Counted from the stretch's first letter, positions 1,337 through 15,646 are shown. The stretch: DNA of 29,468 nt from Woeseiaceae bacterium (GCA_041598895.1 JBFHXQ010000001.1:1-29468); one strand, 5' to 3'. Numbers and translations: made by a program. The notes: generated by a model not told the origin, from the sequence alone.

Positions 1337-2428
1337 CTAACCGGCTAGCGCCTCTTCGAGCTCCTGTGCGAGCTCGCCGGGTTCCGGCAGATTGCTCAGG
1401 TAATGCTTGCCGTTGACCTGCTCCTGAAATTCTTTCGCCTTTCTGCGCGGATTGTAGAACTGCTTGTACCAGATGCGGCCGCGGCGGAAGCTGCGCTCGA
1501 CCGGCAGCGCCATGATACTGAGTGCGGGCCGCTTGTTGCTCCAGATGTCGAAATCCTGTGCGAATGCCGCCAGCGCGCCTTCCTGGGCCAGTTTGGCATT
1601 TGCGATGTCTTCCTCTGTCGGCGGAGTGTTCGGTGCAAGTGCCAGGTTGTTGTGCCAGGCCTTGACGAGCCCGTCCTCGATCGGCGTATGAAAAATAAAT
1701 TCATAACCGTTCGCCTCCCCGAAGCGCTGCCGTGAAATCAGCATGCCCGGACCTGTGTACCAGGTCGACGTCGTCAGGTACGCGTTGTACATGCGATGGA
1801 AGCCGCCCTGGCGCTGGTAATACACGTGTCCATCGTATTCGTTCTCGAAGTATTCGCACGGCGCGCCGTGGGTCGGTCCGAGGTGGTGGGCATCGGCCAT
1901 GTTGTCGATGATTTCCTGCGGGTGAATCGGTATCTCGCCGAGATGGTCGTAGCTGCCGTTAACCCACTGGGGGTCGTCCCAGGCATCGAGATCCGGCGCG
2001 GCGTACTCGGGCTCGCCGTCCTCGGGATCGTGCCACATCAAGATCGCGCCGAGCTGCTCGACCACGTTATACGAGCGAAGCTTCGCGCCTTTCGGGCACG
2101 GTCCGTCGAAGTACGGTATGTCATCGCAGCGGCCATCCGGTGCGTAGCGCCAGCCATGATACGGACAGCGGATCGAGTCGCCTTCGATCTGCTCATTGTT
2201 CAGCACGATCGATGCGCTCGGACTCGCCGCAAGGTGCGTGCCCATGTGCGCGCAGTACGCGTCGAGCAACACGACCTTGCCGCTCTCGCCGCGATACAGC
2301 GCCATGTCCTTGCCGAAAAAGCGCACGGGAAGCGGGCCGTTATCGAGTTCCTTCGCCTCTGCGATCATGAACCAGCCTCTCGGGAACATGAACTCGCCGA
2401 GATCGAAGTCTTCTGCTTTTGCCTTCAA
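1337..2428 (-). CDS. kshA: Rieske non-heme iron monooxygenase, 3-ketosteroid 9-alpha-hydroxylase oxygenase (KshA)-like, 363 aa
   Basis: Rieske ligands CAH...CPYH; mononuclear Fe motif DNMADAHHLGPTH; FAQDFDIWSNK and WYKQFY match KshA C-terminal motifs; FPRGWF N-terminus. Start moved to TTG 2428, which has GGAGGA 8 nt upstream. Confidence 0.8.
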   Translation of the reverse strand: MKAKAEDFDLGEFMFPRGWFMIAEAKELDNGPLPVRFFGKDMALYRGESGKVVLLDAYCAHMGTHLAASPSASIVLNNEQIEGDSIRCPYHGWRYAPDGRCDDIPYFDGPCPKGAKLRSYNVVEQLGAILMWHDPEDGEPEYAAPDLDAWDDPQWVNGSYDHLGEIPIHPQEIIDNMADAHHLGPTHGAPCEYFENEYDGHVYYQRQGGFHRMYNAYLTTSTWYTGPGMLISRQRFGEANGYEFIFHTPIEDGLVKAWHNNLALAPNTPPTEEDIANAKLAQEGALAAFAQDFDIWSNKRPALSIMALPVERSFRRGRIWYKQFYNPRRKAKEFQEQVNGKHYLSNLPEPGELAQELEEALAG

Positions 2429-2486
2429 GGTTTGAGTCCTCCAGCGTGTGCACTCGCTGCGCGGCGGGCATCGTCGCACAGTGTCA

Positions 2487-3188
2487 TCATCGGTCGCCGA
2501 CGTCGCGCGCGCGTGCCGCTATACCGTCAACCGTGTAGTTGACGAAGTACCTGAAATTCGTGTCAAGATCGAAGTCGTCATCATCGAGGCTCAGCGCACT
2601 GAGCGTCGGCAGCTCCTCGGTACCGGTTTCGAGCTTTTCTGCGAGGCGCGCATACGTCGGAGTCGAACCACCCGCAATTTCCGCACGCGTCTGCAGTTCC
2701 TGGTGCACGTAGCCGACGACGTTGTTGACGAGGAAGGCGTGCGCGCGCGCCGCTTCGCGCGGGCTGAAGCCGAACTCGACGAGTATTTTGGTTGCTTTTT
2801 CGAGGCGCTCGAAATCGGGGTCGAGTGCGGCCTGCGCGTATTGCAGCAGCTCGGGATTGTCGAGGAACGCGCCGCGGTAGAAGCCGGCCAGTTCGACGAG
2901 CCAGTCCCGCCAGGACAGACCGGCCGGCGACGGCATGTCGCCGACGCGCTCGGAGAGATAGGACGCGTAAATGCGCCGCAGGCCGTCGAGCCCGCCCGTG
3001 TGGCGATAGAGCGTCGTCACGTTGACGTCGAGCTCGCCGGCCACGGCGTGCATGCTCACCTCGCCGCTTTTGCCAACCCGACGCACCGCCTGCTCGATCA
3101 GCTCCCCGTTGATAGACGGCGTGCGCCCGCGTCGCGACGTGCGGCCGACGTGGGCCGTCGACGCTGCCGATTGTCTGCTCTTCGCCAT
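2487..3188 (-). CDS. TetR/AcrR family transcriptional regulator with TetR_C-type ligand domain, 233 aa
   Basis: HTH VSMHAVAGELDVNVTTLYRH; C-terminal WRDWLVELAGFYRGAFLDNP...GFSPREAARAHAFLVNNVVG pattern; start set at ATG 3188, downstream of the palindrome and -10 box. Confidence 0.88.
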   Translation of the reverse strand: MAKSRQSAASTAHVGRTSRRGRTPSINGELIEQAVRRVGKSGEVSMHAVAGELDVNVTTLYRHTGGLDGLRRIYASYLSERVGDMPSPAGLSWRDWLVELAGFYRGAFLDNPELLQYAQAALDPDFERLEKATKILVEFGFSPREAARAHAFLVNNVVGYVHQELQTRAEIAGGSTPTYARLAEKLETGTEELPTLSALSLDDDDFDLDTNFRYFVNYTVDGIAARARDVGDR

Positions 3189-3206
3189 CGGCGAGACCTG
3201 CGTGAA

Positions 3207-3235
3207 CCAATTTTGCATTATAAATGCAAAATTGG
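3207..3235. promoter_or_regulatory. Operator palindrome 1 (CCAATTTTGCATT-ATA-AATGCAAAATTGG) overlapping a minus-strand TATAAT for tetR-kshA
   Basis: Perfect 13-bp inverted repeat; ATTATA at 3217-3222 is TATAAT on the minus strand; 19 nt upstream of the tetR start. Confidence 0.85.
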
Positions 3236-3258
3236 CGGTCGAACAGGTTCGTGCCGGA

Positions 3259-4287
3259 TCAGGGGCTGTCCGTTGCATCGGTCTGCCAGAAATCGGGGAC
3301 GCCTGGATCGGAGCGTTTGATGAAGCGCTGCAGGAAGCGGATGACGTCCGCAATTTCCGTCTCCGGGAAATCGGCGAGCAGCTGTTCCTCGATTGCTTTC
3401 GATCGCGCAAGCAGCGAGAGGTACAGCTCGCGCCCCTTGACCGTGATCGCGTACTGCATGCCGTCGTGCGTTTCGGTCACGAGACCTTTGCCGATCATCG
3501 CATGCAGCGTCCCGTGATCCGGTGCGCGTCCCGTATGCTCGAGACGCACCTGCAGTGCCTGCAGCGACATCGGCCCGCCAAGGCCGAGCAACGTCAGCGT
3601 CAGATATTCGCTCTCATCGATATCCGCGCTCGCCCACGCATCGCGCAGCGGTGCGGATGCCTGAAAATGGGCCCGCGCAATCAGGTAGAGAAAGAAGTTT
3701 TCGGTGAACGTCCCGTGCGCAACATCGACGCCGGCGCCCGGCTTTTCACCTTTGCCCTTACTCTTCGCCAATGCGTAGCTACCACCGTGAAAAACCAGCG
3801 GCGGCTCGTCGGTCTTCTCGTAGTCCAGGACCTGGCCCACGAAGATCAGGTGATCACCGCCCTCGTAGGTGTGCGTCGTCCGGCACTGAAAGCGAGCGGC
3901 ATACGCCGGCAGCAGCGGAACGTTGCCGACGCCGCGCGTCCACTCCTGACCCGCGAACTTGTCGCTGCCCGCACTTGCAAAGCGCGCGGACAGCGCCTCC
4001 TGCGACGCGCCGAGGACGTGCACACAGAAATGGCCCGACTCCCGAAACGCGGCCATCGACCGGGCACTCTTCGCGAGGGACCAGAGCACTAGCGGCGGGT
4101 CCAGCGACACCGAATTGAAGCTCGATGCCGTTACGCCCACCGGTTCTCCATCGGCGTCCAGCGTCGTAATGACCGTGACGCCCGTGGCAAACTGGCCGAG
4201 CGCCTGGCGAAAATCATGGGCATCTCGGGCGTTGATCGGGGCCTCCGGGGCGGCTTCGCTGAGGGGAGCAGCAAAGCTCACCCTCAT
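3259..4287 (-). CDS. Flavin reductase (HpaC/HsaB-like) fused to a C-terminal MarR-like winged-helix domain, 342 aa
   Basis: FRQALGQFATGVTVIT, TASSFNSVSLDPPLVLWS, EGGDHLIFVG and PPLVFHGGSY flavin-reductase motifs; the last 150 aa (3259-3708) are MarR-like (YLIARAH...KGLV...YAITVKGRELY). Start set at ATG 4287. Confidence 0.88.
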   Translation of the reverse strand: MRVSFAAPLSEAAPEAPINARDAHDFRQALGQFATGVTVITTLDADGEPVGVTASSFNSVSLDPPLVLWSLAKSARSMAAFRESGHFCVHVLGASQEALSARFASAGSDKFAGQEWTRGVGNVPLLPAYAARFQCRTTHTYEGGDHLIFVGQVLDYEKTDEPPLVFHGGSYALAKSKGKGEKPGAGVDVAHGTFTENFFLYLIARAHFQASAPLRDAWASADIDESEYLTLTLLGLGGPMSLQALQVRLEHTGRAPDHGTLHAMIGKGLVTETHDGMQYAITVKGRELYLSLLARSKAIEEQLLADFPETEIADVIRFLQRFIKRSDPGVPDFWQTDATDSP

Positions 4288-4388
4288 CGAAAAAACCGTG
4301 AATTTGATACGAATTAGGCTAGTTAGTTTGATATTATAGCCGATTATATACAATTTCTAGCTATTATTTTACGAATTTGGGAAAAAAC
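4288..4388. promoter_or_regulatory. AT-rich divergent promoter region
   Basis: About 29% GC by hand count; TTTGATA direct repeat (4303-4309 and 4328-4334); imperfect inverted repeat GGCTA(4317-4321)-N15-TAGCC(4337-4341). Confidence 0.55.
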
Positions 4389-5150
4389 GTGAGCGACCTT
4401 TCGAATCGCACAATCGTCGTCACCGGCGGCAGCCGCGGCCTGGGCCGCGGCATCGCGGAGGGTTTCCTCGCGGCCGGCGCCGCGGTCATCGTCTGCGGCC
4501 GAACCGAGCCCGACACCCTGCCGAGCGCCGGAAACGCATCCGCGCTGTTCGTCAAAGCCGACGTCCGGGATGCCGCCGACAGCCAGGCGCTGATCGATCA
4601 CGCGGTAAAGGCGACCGGCCGCCTCGACGTATTGGTGAACAATGCCGGCGGCAGTCCGGAGGTAGCGGCAGAAGACGCGTCACCCCGATTTACCGACGCG
4701 ATCATTCGCCTGAACCTGACGGCGCCCGCGGTGCTCAGTCAGCAGGCGTACGCGGCGCTGCGGGACAGCGGCGGCGGGTCGATCATCAACATCGCGAGCG
4801 TATCGGCGATTCGCCCGTCACCCGGCACGGCGGCCTACGGCGCGGCGAAAGCGGGACTCGTCAACCTGACTCGCTCCCTGGCACAGGAGTGGGCTCCCGA
4901 GGTGCGCGTCAACGTCATCATCGCCGGCCTGGCACGCACCGAGGCTGCCGGCGCTCACTACGGCGGCGAAGAGGGCATCCGCAATATTGAAAAGCGCATG
5001 CCGATGCGGCGCATGGCCACGCCGGGCGACATTGCCCGCGCGTGTCTGTACCTCGCGTCCGCCGAAGCCGCGTACGTGTCCGGCGCAACGCTCGAGGTAC
5101 ATGGCGGCGGCGAACCGCCCGCATTTCTCAGTCTGCAACACGATGCCTGA
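4389..5150 (+). CDS. Classical SDR oxidoreductase resembling the mycobacterial Rv3549c-type steroid-cluster SDR, about 253 aa
   Basis: TGGSRGLG, NNAGGSP, RPSPGTAAYGAAK, EWAPEVRVN and YVSGATLEVHGGGEPP match my recollection of Rv3549c. GTG 4389 preferred over TTG 4377. Confidence 0.88.
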   Translation: MSDLSNRTIVVTGGSRGLGRGIAEGFLAAGAAVIVCGRTEPDTLPSAGNASALFVKADVRDAADSQALIDHAVKATGRLDVLVNNAGGSPEVAAEDASPRFTDAIIRLNLTAPAVLSQQAYAALRDSGGGSIINIASVSAIRPSPGTAAYGAAKAGLVNLTRSLAQEWAPEVRVNVIIAGLARTEAAGAHYGGEEGIRNIEKRMPMRRMATPGDIARACLYLASAEAAYVSGATLEVHGGGEPPAFLSLQHDA

Positions 5151-5645: not shown

Positions 5646-6428
5646 CTACTTGAGCACCGCGGGCACGTGCAGTTCCGCGAGCTTGCCGCCGTCTACCGGC
5701 AGCTCGGCGCCCGTTATGAAACTCGCCTCGTCGCTCGCGAGAAAGAGTATCGCGGCGGCGAGCTCTTCGGGGCGGCCGCTGCGCTGCATCGGAATCGCCG
5801 CCTCGAGCGTCGCTAGGATTTCGGCATCGCCCTGCGCCGCTGCCTGATTGGCCGGCGTGTCGACAGACCCCGGGATCACCGTGTTGATGCGCACGTTATG
5901 GGCCGCCGCTTCCATTGCAGCGCAGCTCGTGAATCGGGTCAGCGCCGCCTTCGCGGCCGAATAGCCTGCAACGCCCTTCGCGGCGCGCGAGCCGCAGGAC
6001 GACGACACGTTCACGATTGCACCATTGCCTTGTTTGATCATGATCTTCATCGCCTCGCGCGTGCCGACGAACGTCGCATCCGCCGTGACCGAAAAATTCT
6101 TGCGCCAGTTGTCGACGCTCATCGTGGCGATCGGTCCGTGGCGCGTGACGGCCGCGTTGTTGACGAGCACGTCCAGGCGGCCATGCGTATCGGCCGTATC
6201 GTTGATCAGCCTGGCGAACGCGTCGAGATCCGTCAGGTCGATCTGCTGCGCCGTCACCTCACCGCCCTTTGCGCGTATCGCATCGCAGGCTTCTTCGAGC
6301 TTTTCCCGGCCGCGCGCGCAAATGACGACGTGAGCCCCCTCTCGTGCGAATGCTTCGGCCGCGGCCCGCCCGATGCCGTAGCTGCTACCTGTGACGATAA
6401 CGACCCTGCCTTCAAATCGTTTGTTCAT
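5646..6428 (-). CDS. Classical SDR oxidoreductase, 260 aa
   Basis: TGSSYGIG, LVNNAA, YSAAK and FITGAELPVDGG motifs; ATGA overlap with the stop of the upstream kstD-like gene. Confidence 0.92.
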   Translation of the reverse strand: MNKRFEGRVVIVTGSSYGIGRAAAEAFAREGAHVVICARGREKLEEACDAIRAKGGEVTAQQIDLTDLDAFARLINDTADTHGRLDVLVNNAAVTRHGPIATMSVDNWRKNFSVTADATFVGTREAMKIMIKQGNGAIVNVSSSCGSRAAKGVAGYSAAKAALTRFTSCAAMEAAAHNVRINTVIPGSVDTPANQAAAQGDAEILATLEAAIPMQRSGRPEELAAAILFLASDEASFITGAELPVDGGKLAELHVPAVLK

Positions 6429-8101
6429 GCGTTTGCCTCTTTTAGTATGTGCCGAGCCGCGAGGTAGCCGAACGCCATTGCGGGACCGAGCGTCGCGCCG
6501 GCGCCGACGTACTTGTCGCCCATGACGGAGGCCGACGTGTTGCCGGTCGCGTACAGGCCGGCAATCGGTTTACCGGACTCGTGCAGGACGCGCGCGTGCT
6601 CGTCGGTCAGGAGCCCACCTTTCGTTCCGATGTCGCCGGGATACAGCGGCAGCGCGTAAAACGGCGCGTCCCCGATACGTGCGATGCACGGATTCGGCGT
6701 GTTGCTCGCGTCGCCGTAATACTGGTCGTAAAAACTGTCGCCGCGATGAAAATCGGTGTCGATGCCGGTTTCGGCGAAGCGGTTGTTGCGCTCGATCGTG
6801 TCGTTGAGGCCTGCGGCATCGATGCCCGCGCGCGCGGCAAGCTCGTCCAGTGTAGCCGCTTTGAGCAGCAGCTCGCGGACCTTGCGTGGCAGGAAGCGAT
6901 CCGGCGTCGCCCAGCCGGGGCCGAGCGGGCCGAAGGGATACTTCTTGCGGAACGTGGCATCGAACACGACCCAGGACGGTATCGATTCCGCGTCGTACAT
7001 CGCCTTGCCGGATTCGAGGTAGGGCAATGCCTCGTTCGCGAAGCGCCGACCCGCCTTGTTGACGATGACCAGACCGGGCAGCGAACGCTCGGCGAAGATG
7101 CCCATCGGCCGCGGCCATCCCGGCACGTGCACGACCGGTATCCACCATGCGTGCTGCATCAGGTCGGTTGCGGCGCCGAGCTCAGTAGCCGCAGCGATCG
7201 CATCGCCGGTGTTGTTTTCCTGCGATGCCGTCCAGTCCGGCGTCGTCGGCTTTGGCAGCAGGCGCTCGCGCATCGCGGCATTGTGCTCGAAGCCGCCGGC
7301 CGCGAGGATCACGCCGTGCCTCGCAGTTATCTCAACGTTGCGGCCGTCCTTTGCGACGACTGCCCCGGTGACCGTGCCGTCGCGCTCGAGCAGCCGGGTC
7401 ATCGGGCAGTCAAGCCAGAGTTCGCCGCCGAGCTCTTTCAGCGACAGGTACAGGCTGCCGATCAGCGCATTGCCCTGCGTCAGGCGGCGCGAGCGACGGT
7501 CTTTGAGTCGGCCGGGCAGATCGAGGTAATAGGCAATAACGACTTTCAGCAGCGTGAGCCGCCAGCCCGGCGCCTGCGTCAGGAACTTGCGCGCCTCGGG
7601 AATGCTCATCGTGTAACGCCCCTGCGCCATCGCACCCCGCGGCTGCTCGCGCATGCGGTACATGTCGTCCCCGAGCTTCGCACCGTTCAGCACTTTCGGT
7701 GACTGCGTACGGTAGCCCCGTTTCGCGCCGGGCTGCTCCGTGTAATAGTCGGGGTACGGTATCGCTTCGTAACTCACGTGCGTGTTCCGCTGCAGGAATT
7801 CGAGCATCTCGGGCGCCGCGTCGATGAACGCGCGAATGCGCTGATCGGACACCTGCTCACCAATCATCGTCTTCATGTACAGGTAGGCATCGTCGGCAGA
7901 ATCGTCGACGCCGAGCCGCTTCGCGTTCATGCTCGCCGGAATCCAAAGACCCCCGCCGGATATTGCCGACGTGCCGCCATAGCGGTTGCTTTTCTCGACG
8001 ACGAGTACACGCGCACCGGAGTGCGCCGCGGTCACCGCCGCCGTGAGCGCGCCGGCTCCCGAGCCGACGATCAGGACGTCCGTTGCGTAGCTGCCGGTCA
8101 C
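6425..8101 (-). CDS. kstD: FAD-dependent 3-ketosteroid Delta-1-dehydrogenase (KstD)-like oxidoreductase, 558 aa
   Basis: GSGAG FAD loop, GGTSAISGGGLWIP, YPDYY, RFANEALPY, GDIGTKGGLLTD, YVGAGATLGPAM; tyrosines are present in the three motifs that carry the catalytic Tyr residues in KstD; steroid gene context. Confidence 0.8.
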   Translation of the reverse strand: MTGSYATDVLIVGSGAGALTAAVTAAHSGARVLVVEKSNRYGGTSAISGGGLWIPASMNAKRLGVDDSADDAYLYMKTMIGEQVSDQRIRAFIDAAPEMLEFLQRNTHVSYEAIPYPDYYTEQPGAKRGYRTQSPKVLNGAKLGDDMYRMREQPRGAMAQGRYTMSIPEARKFLTQAPGWRLTLLKVVIAYYLDLPGRLKDRRSRRLTQGNALIGSLYLSLKELGGELWLDCPMTRLLERDGTVTGAVVAKDGRNVEITARHGVILAAGGFEHNAAMRERLLPKPTTPDWTASQENNTGDAIAAATELGAATDLMQHAWWIPVVHVPGWPRPMGIFAERSLPGLVIVNKAGRRFANEALPYLESGKAMYDAESIPSWVVFDATFRKKYPFGPLGPGWATPDRFLPRKVRELLLKAATLDELAARAGIDAAGLNDTIERNNRFAETGIDTDFHRGDSFYDQYYGDASNTPNPCIARIGDAPFYALPLYPGDIGTKGGLLTDEHARVLHESGKPIAGLYATGNTSASVMGDKYVGAGATLGPAMAFGYLAARHILKEANA

Positions 8102-10474: not shown

Positions 10475-10503
10475 CGAATTTTGCAATTATAATGCAAAAT
10501 TCG
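10475..10503. promoter_or_regulatory. Operator palindrome 2 (CGAATTTTGCA-ATTATAA-TGCAAAATTCG) in the divergent ACAD / DUF35-ltp2 promoter
   Basis: Perfect 11-bp arms with a 7-nt spacer; shares AATTTTGCA-N7-TGCAAAATT with 3207-3235; TATAAT on both strands (+10488-10493, -10486-10491). Confidence 0.88.
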
Positions 10504-13096: not shown

Positions 13097-14098
13097 TCAG
13101 CCGGGTTCGGATTCGGCACCGGCCACGGTACGCAAGAGCCCGCGGAATGCGCGCCGCGCAGTGCTCTTGCCCTGCACGACCTGGAATACCTCTGCGGCGA
13201 TCGGCATGTGCACGCCGTGCTTCTCGGCAAGCGCCATGACCGCCGGTGCGCTCTTTACGCCTTCGGCCACCATGAACATGTCCTCGATGATTTCCTCGAT
13301 CGAGCGTCCCCGACCGAGCTCGTAACCGACCGTGCGGTTGCGACTCTGCGCGCTGGTACAGGTCGCAATCAGGTCGCCGGTCCCGGCAAGCCCCGCGAAG
13401 GTCTGCGGCTCGCCGCCCATCGCCACCCCGAGCCGCGTGATTTCCGCGAGCCCGCGCGTGATCACCGCCGAGCGCGTGTTCTCGCCGGCTCCCTGACCGT
13501 CGCCCATGCCCGCCGCGATCGCGATGATGTTTTTTAAAACGCCGCCGAGCTCGCAGCCGATGACGTCGTGATTCGTGTACACGCGAAACAGGCCGCTGTG
13601 AAACAGCTTCTGCAGCTCGGTGACGATGACCTCGTCCTCCATCGCGATAACGCTTGCGGCCGCGAAGCCGGCCATGATTTCCCGCGCCAGGTTAGGCCCG
13701 GTCAGCACGCCCGCAGGGTGGCCGGGCAGTACCTCATTGATGAGCTCCGTCATGCGCTTGCCGGAGCTCAGTTCGAGGCCCTTGCTCAGGCTGATGACGG
13801 GAACCCATGGCCTGATGTGCGGGCGGATCTGCTCGAGTACGCTGCGAAACGACTGCGACGGGATGCCCATTACGATCACGTCCATCGAGGCGACGGTTTC
13901 CTCGATGTCGGACGTTGCCCTGAGGCGTTTCGGCAAATTGGCGCCCGGAAGGTATTTCTCGTTCGTGTGCCGGGAGTTGATCTCGTCGACCGTCGCCGAA
14001 TCTCTTGCCCAAAGCGTGATCGGCGCATTTTTTGCAATTAGCGCCGCCACGGTCGTGCCCCACGATCCGCCGCCGAGCAGCCCTGCCTTAAGGTTCAT
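13097..14098 (-). CDS. gpsA: NAD(P)H-dependent glycerol-3-phosphate dehydrogenase, 333 aa
   Basis: GGGSWGT, SLSKGLE, GPNLARE, ELGGVLKNIIAIAAG, GLAGTGDLIATCTS..SRNR, AEGVKS; GAGGGGG RBS. Confidence 0.96.
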   Translation of the reverse strand: MNLKAGLLGGGSWGTTVAALIAKNAPITLWARDSATVDEINSRHTNEKYLPGANLPKRLRATSDIEETVASMDVIVMGIPSQSFRSVLEQIRPHIRPWVPVISLSKGLELSSGKRMTELINEVLPGHPAGVLTGPNLAREIMAGFAAASVIAMEDEVIVTELQKLFHSGLFRVYTNHDVIGCELGGVLKNIIAIAAGMGDGQGAGENTRSAVITRGLAEITRLGVAMGGEPQTFAGLAGTGDLIATCTSAQSRNRTVGYELGRGRSIEEIIEDMFMVAEGVKSAPAVMALAEKHGVHMPIAAEVFQVVQGKSTARRAFRGLLRTVAGAESEPG

Positions 14099-14164
14099 AT
14101 TGCCCCCTCATCGCCGCACCCAAATTCTTATTTTGCAATCGCTCTGCGGCTTCGCCGAGTTCGG

Positions 14165-15646
14165 TCAGGCGGACCGGGCCTTCGCCGCGCCTTTCTTGCC
14201 GCGCTTCTTCCGGCCTGCCGGCGCCTTTTGTTCGACGCTCGCCGCGCCGAGCAGCTCTTCGAATGAGTCCCGAAGGCAGCTCACGAAAAACGCGATGTCC
14301 GGCATGATCTCGCGCGTCGAGGTAACGCCAAAGGTCATTTCCCCGTTATAGCTCGGCGTCGCAATGAACAGCCCCATACCGTTGTTCAGCGGCGCCATGC
14401 CGAAGTTCGTAATCTGCAGCGCACCGTTCATGTACATCGGCACCTGCGGACCCGGCACGTTCGAGATGAACAGGTTGCAGACGCGCGGGCCCGTGCCGAC
14501 GCGCGACACGAGCCGGCCTGCGAGTGCCTGCGTCGCGGACGGCACGTGGCGGCTCAGGTCGGTCATCAGTCGTGCCGAGATGCCGGACTTCGCCTCCTTG
14601 GTCGCCTGCGTCGTTTCCCGAATCGCCGCCAGCCGTTCGATCGGGTCTTCGACATCGGTATGAATCGAGGTCGTCATCGCCGTAATGTTGTTTCCAGGAG
14701 CCTCGTCGCTCGAGCCCGGTCTGCGGGCGTTTATCGGCACCCATGCGACCAGCGGCTCGTCCGGCAATTCGTCGTGGGCCACAAGGTATTTGCGCAAACC
14801 GCCTGCGCAAACCGCGAGCACGACGTCGTTGATCGTAGCCCCGGACACGGCCTGCCGGATCTGCTTGAAACCCGCCAGCGGGAACCGCGCCCCGTCAAAC
14901 ATCTTGTGTGGCGACACCTCGCGATTGAAACGGGTTTTCGGCACGTCGGACCTGTCGTCGTCGCCCGACCCCAGGTTTTTCTTCACCGCGTCGAACACCA
15001 CCGGCGTCGCTCGCAGAAGCATGGTGCCCATACGCACCGGGGAGGTGGCGTTGGCGACGATTCCCCGCCTCAGCATGGTTACAAACGAAGGCTCGTCGTA
15101 GATATTCATGTGCATCGACGAAATATCGACGGCCGGAGTGCCGTTCGCGTCGATGTCCATGATCGCCGCAAAGAACTGGTTGGCCGATGCGCCGTCGACT
15201 GCCACGTGGTGGATCTTCGTGCCGAGTGCATAGCTTCCCTTCGGTACGCCCTCGACGTTATCGAGCCCCTCGACAACGTACATCTCCCAGGGCGGCCGAT
15301 TCATGTCGAGTGGCCGCGAGTGATAGCGCGCCATATGGATACACAGCTGCCGCCAGTCGCCCGGGTGTGGCAGCCGCGCATGCCGCATGTGGTATTCGAG
15401 ATCGAAAAATTCGTCATCGACCCAGTACGGATAGTCCAGCTCGAAGGGCACGTGCACGAGGCGTCGCTTGAACAGCGGTGACGTGTGCAGCCGACTCTCG
15501 ACGTGCGCGATGATGTCCTTGAAGCGGACCTGGCCGCCGGGTGCCGTCGACGGATCGAATATTCCGAAGCCGGTAACGTGGGTCAGGTTATTGCCCGTTT
15601 CCATATACAGAAACGCGGCATCCTGAGCTTTCAGCTGTTGTAACAA
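14165..15646 (-). CDS. Wax ester synthase / diacylglycerol acyltransferase (WS/DGAT), 493 aa
   Basis: QDAAFLYME, RPLDMNRPPWEMYVVEGL, HHVAVDG (HHxxxDG), ATINDVVLAVCAGGLRKYL, NLFISNVPGP; GAGGAG RBS 6 nt before TTG. Confidence 0.95.
   Translation of the reverse strand: MLQQLKAQDAAFLYMETGNNLTHVTGFGIFDPSTAPGGQVRFKDIIAHVESRLHTSPLFKRRLVHVPFELDYPYWVDDEFFDLEYHMRHARLPHPGDWRQLCIHMARYHSRPLDMNRPPWEMYVVEGLDNVEGVPKGSYALGTKIHHVAVDGASANQFFAAIMDIDANGTPAVDISSMHMNIYDEPSFVTMLRRGIVANATSPVRMGTMLLRATPVVFDAVKKNLGSGDDDRSDVPKTRFNREVSPHKMFDGARFPLAGFKQIRQAVSGATINDVVLAVCAGGLRKYLVAHDELPDEPLVAWVPINARRPGSSDEAPGNNITAMTTSIHTDVEDPIERLAAIRETTQATKEAKSGISARLMTDLSRHVPSATQALAGRLVSRVGTGPRVCNLFISNVPGPQVPMYMNGALQITNFGMAPLNNGMGLFIATPSYNGEMTFGVTSTREIMPDIAFFVSCLRDSFEELLGAASVEQKAPAGRKKRGKKGAAKARSA

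Follow-up and report, generated by a model that had tools for sequence, protein, structure and literature searches.

The best described relatives of the protein considered here are reductase components of two-component monooxygenases in which a flavin reductase domain is followed by a domain resembling MarR regulators. [quoted passage not shown] Three substrate-stimulated reductases with an additional C-terminal domain are named in the same work, namely C1, the Pseudomonas putida HPAH reductase and NtaB (nitrilotriacetate monooxygenase) (PMC11618861). Reductases of this kind pass on the reduced flavin by free diffusion and often lack specificity for one partner (PMC6895838). In steroid degradation the comparable components are HsaB of Mycobacterium and Rhodococcus and TesA1 of Comamonas testosteroni, which belongs to the 3-HSA hydroxylase TesA1A2. 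TesA1 is the reductase according to two papers (PMC6895838, PMC8399759) and is paired with HsaA, contrary to these, in two others (PMC4810484, PMC6153880); the operon order (tesA1-tesD-E-F-G) and the synteny described below fit the assignment as reductase. Our search of the literature found no biochemical work on any TesA1-type protein.

We analyzed a 29,468-nucleotide stretch of DNA from a Woeseiaceae bacterium (referred to as the window), in which the minus-strand gene at 3259-4287 (stop codon included) encodes a predicted TesA1-type NADH:flavin reductase with a C-terminal MarR-fold domain, as judged from the ORF, from matches to PF01613, NF045919 and 5zc2, and from the tree. The reading frame opens at an ATG at position 4287 and specifies a protein of 342 amino acids; no clear Shine-Dalgarno sequence was found upstream of this ATG. 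The sole other in-frame start is a GTG at 4279-4281, and a longer TTG-initiated frame (to 4353) is not credible, as it crosses AT-rich intergenic DNA. Residues 1-21 (4225-4287) are unconserved among homologues and have low pLDDT.

Three parts follow this segment. The flavin reductase domain occupies residues 22-175 (3763-4224, minus strand; PF01613, structure matches and invariant columns): the Pfam model Flavin_Reduct (PF01613) covers residues 31-172 with E 3e-44, the domain of the AlphaFold model superposes on solved flavin reductases with Z 20-22 and rmsd 1.5-2 A, and both Arg27, which is invariant in the alignments, and the YEGGDH motif are intact. An inter-domain linker, residues 176-191 (3715-3762, minus strand), is marked by low pLDDT (below 50 for residues 182-187 in the first AlphaFold model) and by low conservation. 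The MarR-fold domain then extends over residues 192-331 (3295-3714, minus strand; structure match, 3cdh and column counts) and consists of six helices and a short two-strand wing. We built two AlphaFold models of the window protein (mean pLDDT 86 and 89; the second from a 147-sequence alignment, with pTM 0.71), and in both a split-barrel reductase domain is joined to a winged-helix domain of six helices by a linker (about 176-191) of low confidence. Mean pairwise identity among the aligned proteins is 62% in the N domain, 20% in the linker and 34% in the C domain.

C1 is the best solved relative of the window protein (5zc2, E 5e-44, residues 22-302), and the NCBIfam model for C1-type HPAH reductases, NF045919, aligns end to end (residues 22-324 with model positions 6-308 of 309), at a score of 201 bits that is below its cut-off of 340 bits; the score on the HsaB model, NF045630, is 148 bits, below the cut-off of 230 bits. 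The modelled residues 183-331 align in structure with entire MarR proteins (2rdp, ST1710, 3cjn and MepR) with Z 14.2-14.6 over 128-142 residues, the best being 2rdp (Z 14.6, rmsd 3.2 over 135 residues) and ST1710 (Z 14.5), and by structure comparison of the model the MarR fold is complete, dimerisation helices included. At the level of sequence, the C-terminal 155 residues alone match the MarR regulator 3cdh with E 1.7e-4, the Pfam MarR models PF01047 and PF12802 have no match to the C domain of the window protein at E 10 or below, and the only match there is HTH_45, at E 0.06. The preliminary description, which had proposed an HpaC-type domain joined at about residue 190 to a MarR-like C-terminal domain in the manner of C1, is borne out in its domains, its architecture and its boundary. 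The arrangement of the two domains is another matter: against whole 5zc2 the AlphaFold models give TM 0.42-0.47 and rmsd 14-21 A, these being single-chain models whose domains match individually, and the inter-domain contact in the C1 crystal may be one between subunits.

The gene lies in a 2.4-Mb metagenome-assembled genome (MAG) that is 62% complete. Downstream of the reductase, on the same strand, are a TetR gene and the gene for KshA (1337-2479, minus strand; PF19298 KshA_C, E 2e-49, plus a Rieske domain). An SDR gene (4377-5150, plus strand) and a thioesterase gene are divergent from the reductase, and beyond the thioesterase are a second SDR, a KstD-like 3-ketosteroid dehydrogenase (6425-8101, minus strand; FAD_binding_2, E 2e-83) whose protein is 44-48% identical to the products of KstD/TesH genes of steroid clusters, and two acyl-CoA dehydrogenases. 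We considered and rejected the identity of a KshA reductase for the gene at 3259-4287, KshB not being a PF01613 protein; KshB is a ferredoxin-reductase-type iron-sulfur flavoprotein.

No HsaA-type oxygenase is encoded in the window, as had been noted before, and the homologue that had then been sought elsewhere in the genome is present on contig C2 of the assembly (309 bits), where it is followed by hsaD, a hydratase, an aldehyde dehydrogenase, an aldolase and hsaC (that is, hsaD/E/G/F/C), with no reductase gene in this hsa cluster. Mis-binning of contigs C1 and C2 was rejected, the GC content and tetranucleotide profile being typical of the MAG. Upstream of the HsaA-type gene, in the interval 13684-15000 of contig C2 (L004), two plus-strand ORFs (13658-14311 and 14251-14922) have no NCBIfam match. 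One good group-D oxygenase candidate, of the HsaA type, was found in the assembly, and a PF01613 search of this 62%-complete MAG returned the reductase gene as the only match; because hsaA is on another contig and the MAG is incomplete to this degree, a second reductase could exist. The other sampled species of the genus, 24 in number, yielded no fused reductase and no HsaA-type gene, which indicates that the two traits go together; in this MAG steroid catabolism seems to be an accessory trait, probably one that was acquired.

Homologues in the protein collection number in the thousands, and the best 120, almost all of 310-330 amino acids, belong to marine gamma- and alphaproteobacteria, several of them named hsaB by JGI. 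A scan of species-representative genomes yielded 80 loci, and a tree was computed for 58 fused proteins, rooted on a true C1 orthologue (L086, which scores 515 bits with the C1 model). The window protein is placed with SH-aLRT 100 inside a 43-row clade of fused reductases of about 320 amino acids that includes the proteins of Comamonas faecalis (L012) and Simplicispira metamorpha (L025); the C1 orthologue is outside it, as are two further clades of fused proteins, of Oceanospirillales and Rhizobiales type respectively. In C. faecalis an hsaA/tesA2 gene is divergent from the fused reductase gene, which is itself followed by hsaD, hsaE and hsaG/tesF, and in S. metamorpha the reductase of the same divergent pair is followed by hsaD and hsaE, so that the clade genes of both species occupy the classical tesA1 position; the Pseudomonas clade genes are arranged in the same way. 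The two clusters have been treated as tesA1A2DEFG clusters (preprint 10.64898/2026.09.18.752586). The GTDB genus of the C. faecalis genome yielded small genomes with short reductases only, and the link to C. testosteroni TA441 rests on synteny and on the cluster comparison in the preprint (10.64898/2026.09.18.752586).

The association extends beyond these genera. In the sphingomonad Parasphingorhabdus (L010) the order is kstD-kshA-hsaA-D-C-E-G-F-reductase on one strand, with the reductase as the last gene of the operon, and in a member of the Parvibaculales (L008) hsaCDA is near the fused reductase; synteny of the clade reductase with hsaA/tesA2 is repeated and independent, across three proteobacterial classes. 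For 25 genomes of the clade, no steroid gene was seen within 10 kb of the reductase; in 17 of these a strong HsaA (at least 300 bits) is encoded elsewhere. Three metagenomic relatives of the window protein (77-81% identity) retain the order ACAD-ACAD-KstD-SDR / SDR-reductase, and KshA is also present on the two longer metagenomic contigs (L111 and L112). The clade genomes in which no strong HsaA was found belong mostly to one subclade (L029, L035, L037, L038, L039, L041 and L046), drawn from Steroidobacteraceae, other Gammaproteobacteria, a Burkholderiales MAG and a Pseudomonas; the arginine discussed below is absent from these reductases as well, and they may have another oxygenase and another effector.

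That subclade bears on a different account of the window protein, in which it is the reductase for another flavin-dependent oxygenase, or for several, and is among steroid genes by chance. Free diffusion of the flavin and the frequent lack of partner specificity in such reductases (PMC6895838), the genomes of the subclade in which strong HsaA was not found and the 62% completeness of the MAG are all in favor of this account. We nevertheless give it little credence: synteny with hsaA/tesA2 recurs independently in three proteobacterial classes, only one PF01613 gene and only one good group-D oxygenase candidate, of the HsaA type, were found in the assembly, and neither the fused gene nor hsaA was found in the 24 congeneric species. 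Membership of the TesA1 clade, synteny in relatives, hsaA on contig C2 and the finding of a single reductase together support the term HsaB equivalent, which the preliminary description had used, and the protein is more exactly termed a predicted TesA1 orthologue. Its catalytic role is very probably that of the reductase component of a 3-HSA 4-hydroxylase. The two-domain form is the rule for proteobacterial TesA1, and the architecture is therefore not special to the window locus. Pseudomaricurvus alkylphenolicus has an unfused reductase of 173 amino acids directly upstream of hsaA-hsaD-E-G-F (L058, 10001-15366); the extra domain is thus not obligatory for the pathway, and fused and unfused solutions both exist in Gammaproteobacteria.

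Within the clade, the MarR-fold domain carries a signature of its own (F194, F198, Y201, L202, R205, H207, Q209 and Y228, together with H251-T252-G253, G285, R286 and K297), and several of these residues are nearly invariant (R205 in 133 of 137 members, H207 in 126, Q209 in 130, T252 in 126 and K297 in 134; R286 likewise), which indicates that the C domain is under selection. We mapped the residues of C1 onto the window protein in alignments of 37 and 147 rows that included the C1 orthologue. The position of C1 Arg222 is occupied by Leu229 (codon at 3601-3603, minus strand), and a phmmer alignment to 5zc2 pairs the residues alike. At this position all ten fused reductases outside the TesA1 clade have Arg, which none of the 137 members of the clade has (Leu in 77, Phe in 38, Met in nine and Tyr in seven); the neighboring position, Tyr228 in the window protein, is Tyr, Phe or Trp in 134 of 137. 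Two reductases that keep the arginine, from Amphritea (L048) and the Oceanospirillales (L064), adjoin true HPA 3-hydroxylase oxygenases (704 and 679 bits, respectively, against a cut-off of 650). The clade members accompany HsaA-type oxygenases. The pocket residue thus varies with the kind of substrate, which is carboxylated in the one case and a neutral steroid phenol in the other, and this correlation between the partner oxygenase (HPA hydroxylase or HsaA type) and the pocket residue (Arg or hydrophobic) is a new detail. Other parts of the C1 switch compare as follows: C1 Arg20 corresponds to Arg27 and is invariant across all aligned proteins, the Glu248/Glu251 latch has no acidic counterpart (A255-P256 and H258-G259 in the window protein), and Tyr189 is replaced by Glu196.

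These observations suggest a model in which the N-terminal domain would reduce free FMN or FAD with NADH, and the reduced flavin would reach the contig-C2 oxygenase (HsaA/TesA2 type) by diffusion; this oxygenase in turn would hydroxylate the phenolic A ring of 3-HSA, the product of KstD and KshA. The MarR-fold domain at the C terminus, a homologue of the C1 regulatory domain, would be a ligand-operated brake on the reductase that limits futile NADH oxidation and H2O2 formation. Its pocket, hydrophobic and aromatic and with no carboxylate-binding Arg, would fit a neutral phenolic effector (3-HSA or a related seco-steroid), the binding of which would release the brake, so that reduced flavin, and hence H2O2, would be formed only when the oxygenase has substrate. 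We regard this reading as a whole, that of a TesA1-type reductase for a seco-steroid hydroxylase with a ligand-operated MarR-fold brake, as moderately probable. That TesA1-type reductases are gated by a seco-steroid effector (3-HSA or a close analogue) in particular is a more tentative proposal, made by analogy, to which we assign a little under an even chance. Gating is favored as plausible by the analogy with C1, the P. putida HPAH reductase and NtaB and by the clade-wide replacement of the arginine; the change of Tyr189 to Glu196, the lack of an acidic latch pair and models that are unlike 5zc2 argue against carrying the C1 mechanism over unchanged.

The same three departures from C1 speak for another account, in which the reductase would be constitutive and the MarR-fold domain an inherited module for structure, dimerisation or docking to the oxygenase, with no effector control, in which case the lost arginine would mark a loss of ligand binding and not a change of ligand. 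This account, which we consider rather unlikely, also draws on the lower conservation of the C domain than of the catalytic domain (34% and 62%), on the unfused reductase that suffices beside hsaA in P. alkylphenolicus and on the single-domain form of actinobacterial HsaB (model length 186). It is harder to reconcile with clade-specific C-domain residues that are nearly invariant across alpha-, beta- and gammaproteobacteria, and with pocket positions that remain hydrophobic or aromatic with no sign of drift (as at position 228); moreover, the three reductases with an extra C-terminal domain named above are substrate-stimulated (PMC11618861).

A MarR fold could also act on DNA. The AT-rich region between the reductase gene and the divergent SDR gene (4377-5150, plus strand), delimited by sequence, motif search and comparison with relatives, is 4288-4376 in extent, somewhat shorter than the 4288-4388 given earlier, and is the putative divergent promoter region of both genes. 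It contains TATAAT-like boxes and two copies of the motif ATTCGTA[AT] (4307-4314 and 4369-4376, both on the minus strand and about 60 nucleotides apart), and both blocks and the intervening TATAAT-like box are conserved in three relatives (L111, L112 and L113, at about 5910-6000). The two copies are direct repeats, unlike the TetR palindrome, and a palindrome is what MarR dimers typically use. No inverted repeats were found in 4270-4400, and a sigma-70 promoter scan of 3100-4500 found nothing. The TetR-type palindrome itself, identified by motif search, occurs twice in the window (3208-3234 and 10476-10502, with 0 copies expected), the first copy coming immediately behind the stop codon of the reductase, where the TetR gene begins; it likewise follows the reductase gene in L111 and L112 (7007-7031 in each), and there is no copy in 4288-4376. 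Transcription of the reductase gene may run into an internal promoter or a roadblock under TetR control.

On this promoter region one could build a bifunctional enzyme-repressor, the MarR domain of which would bind 4288-4376 and autoregulate the reductase and SDR genes until released by a steroid ligand. The completeness of the fold with its dimerisation helices, the lack in the reductase promoter of the TetR palindrome found elsewhere, and the conserved ATTCGTA[AT] pair are compatible with such a protein, which we nevertheless judge improbable. No MarR Pfam model reaches E 0.01; the tip of the wing (K-D-K-R-R in 3cdh) is missing from the C domain by a five-residue deletion in the alignment, and the segment of helix 4 plus wing has few and variable basic residues; the domain has a net charge of -4 in the window protein, and in all but one of 37 aligned sequences (36) it is neutral or negative; the motifs shared with relatives are repeated in the same orientation, with no inverted repeat found; and the equivalent helix in C1 packs on the reductase domain (PMC11618861). 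As for the alternative in the preliminary description, in which the adjacent promoter would be bound by the MarR domain, the deleted wing tip, the acidic domain and the absence of a Pfam MarR match speak against it. Binding of DNA by the MarR-fold domain is unlikely on its sequence, and the MarR-shaped tail is, by analogy with C1, probably a ligand sensor and not a DNA binder.

Returning to the reading of the protein as a TesA1-type reductase, its principal consequence is that the seco-steroid hydroxylase of a marine MAG can be given its missing reductase partner, at the strength stated above. The architecture was already known, having been solved in C1, and the seemingly odd fusion is the standard form of proteobacterial TesA1, which annotators should therefore not call a transcription factor. 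The residue correlation makes substrate gating of TesA1 a simple kinetic and mutational question. If gating is true, then substrate control of two-component monooxygenases would extend from small aromatic acids to steroids, a one-residue marker of specificity would be available for the whole fused family, and there would be an explanation for how steroid degraders avoid the waste of NADH and the formation of H2O2; the protein could then also serve as a steroid-responsive redox module in biocatalysis or biosensing.

Set beside known systems, the protein shares something with each of four. Phenolic-acid-sensing MarR regulators (NadR and HpaR) resemble its C-terminal domain in the fold of the whole domain (Z about 14.5 with 2rdp and ST1710, and the match to 3cdh), but the window domain lacks the wing tip, is acidic, has the ligand Arg replaced, has no Pfam MarR match and is joined covalently to an enzyme. 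HsaB of Mycobacterium and Rhodococcus (NF045630) shares the PF01613 fold and the same proposed catalytic job; it is a single domain of about 186 residues, whereas the window protein has about 165 residues more and scores 148 bits against the required 230. With C1 (PDB 5ZC2 and 5ZYR) the protein has in common the flavin reductase domain, the flexible linker and the MarR-fold domain, alignable end to end, and the NADH-contact Arg (R20 in C1, R27 here) is kept; it differs in belonging to a separate clade (19% identity in the C domain; 201 bits against 340), in having Leu229 for Arg222 and Glu196 for Tyr189 with no Glu248/Glu251 latch, and in the oxygenase partner, which is C2-type for C1 and would be HsaA-type for the window protein. 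The fourth system is TesA1 of C. testosteroni. The gene in the window differs from it in setting, being between an SDR gene and the TetR-kshA pair with hsaA/tesA2 on another contig, and its product is nearest to alphaproteobacterial and marine gammaproteobacterial versions (49-52% identity) and to those of metagenome contigs (77-81%). It is like TesA1 in clade, in length class (about 320-340 amino acids) and in a pathway neighborhood of kshA, kstD and hsa/tes genes, and the C. faecalis protein encoded at the tesA1 position is 46% identical to it over residues 22-334.
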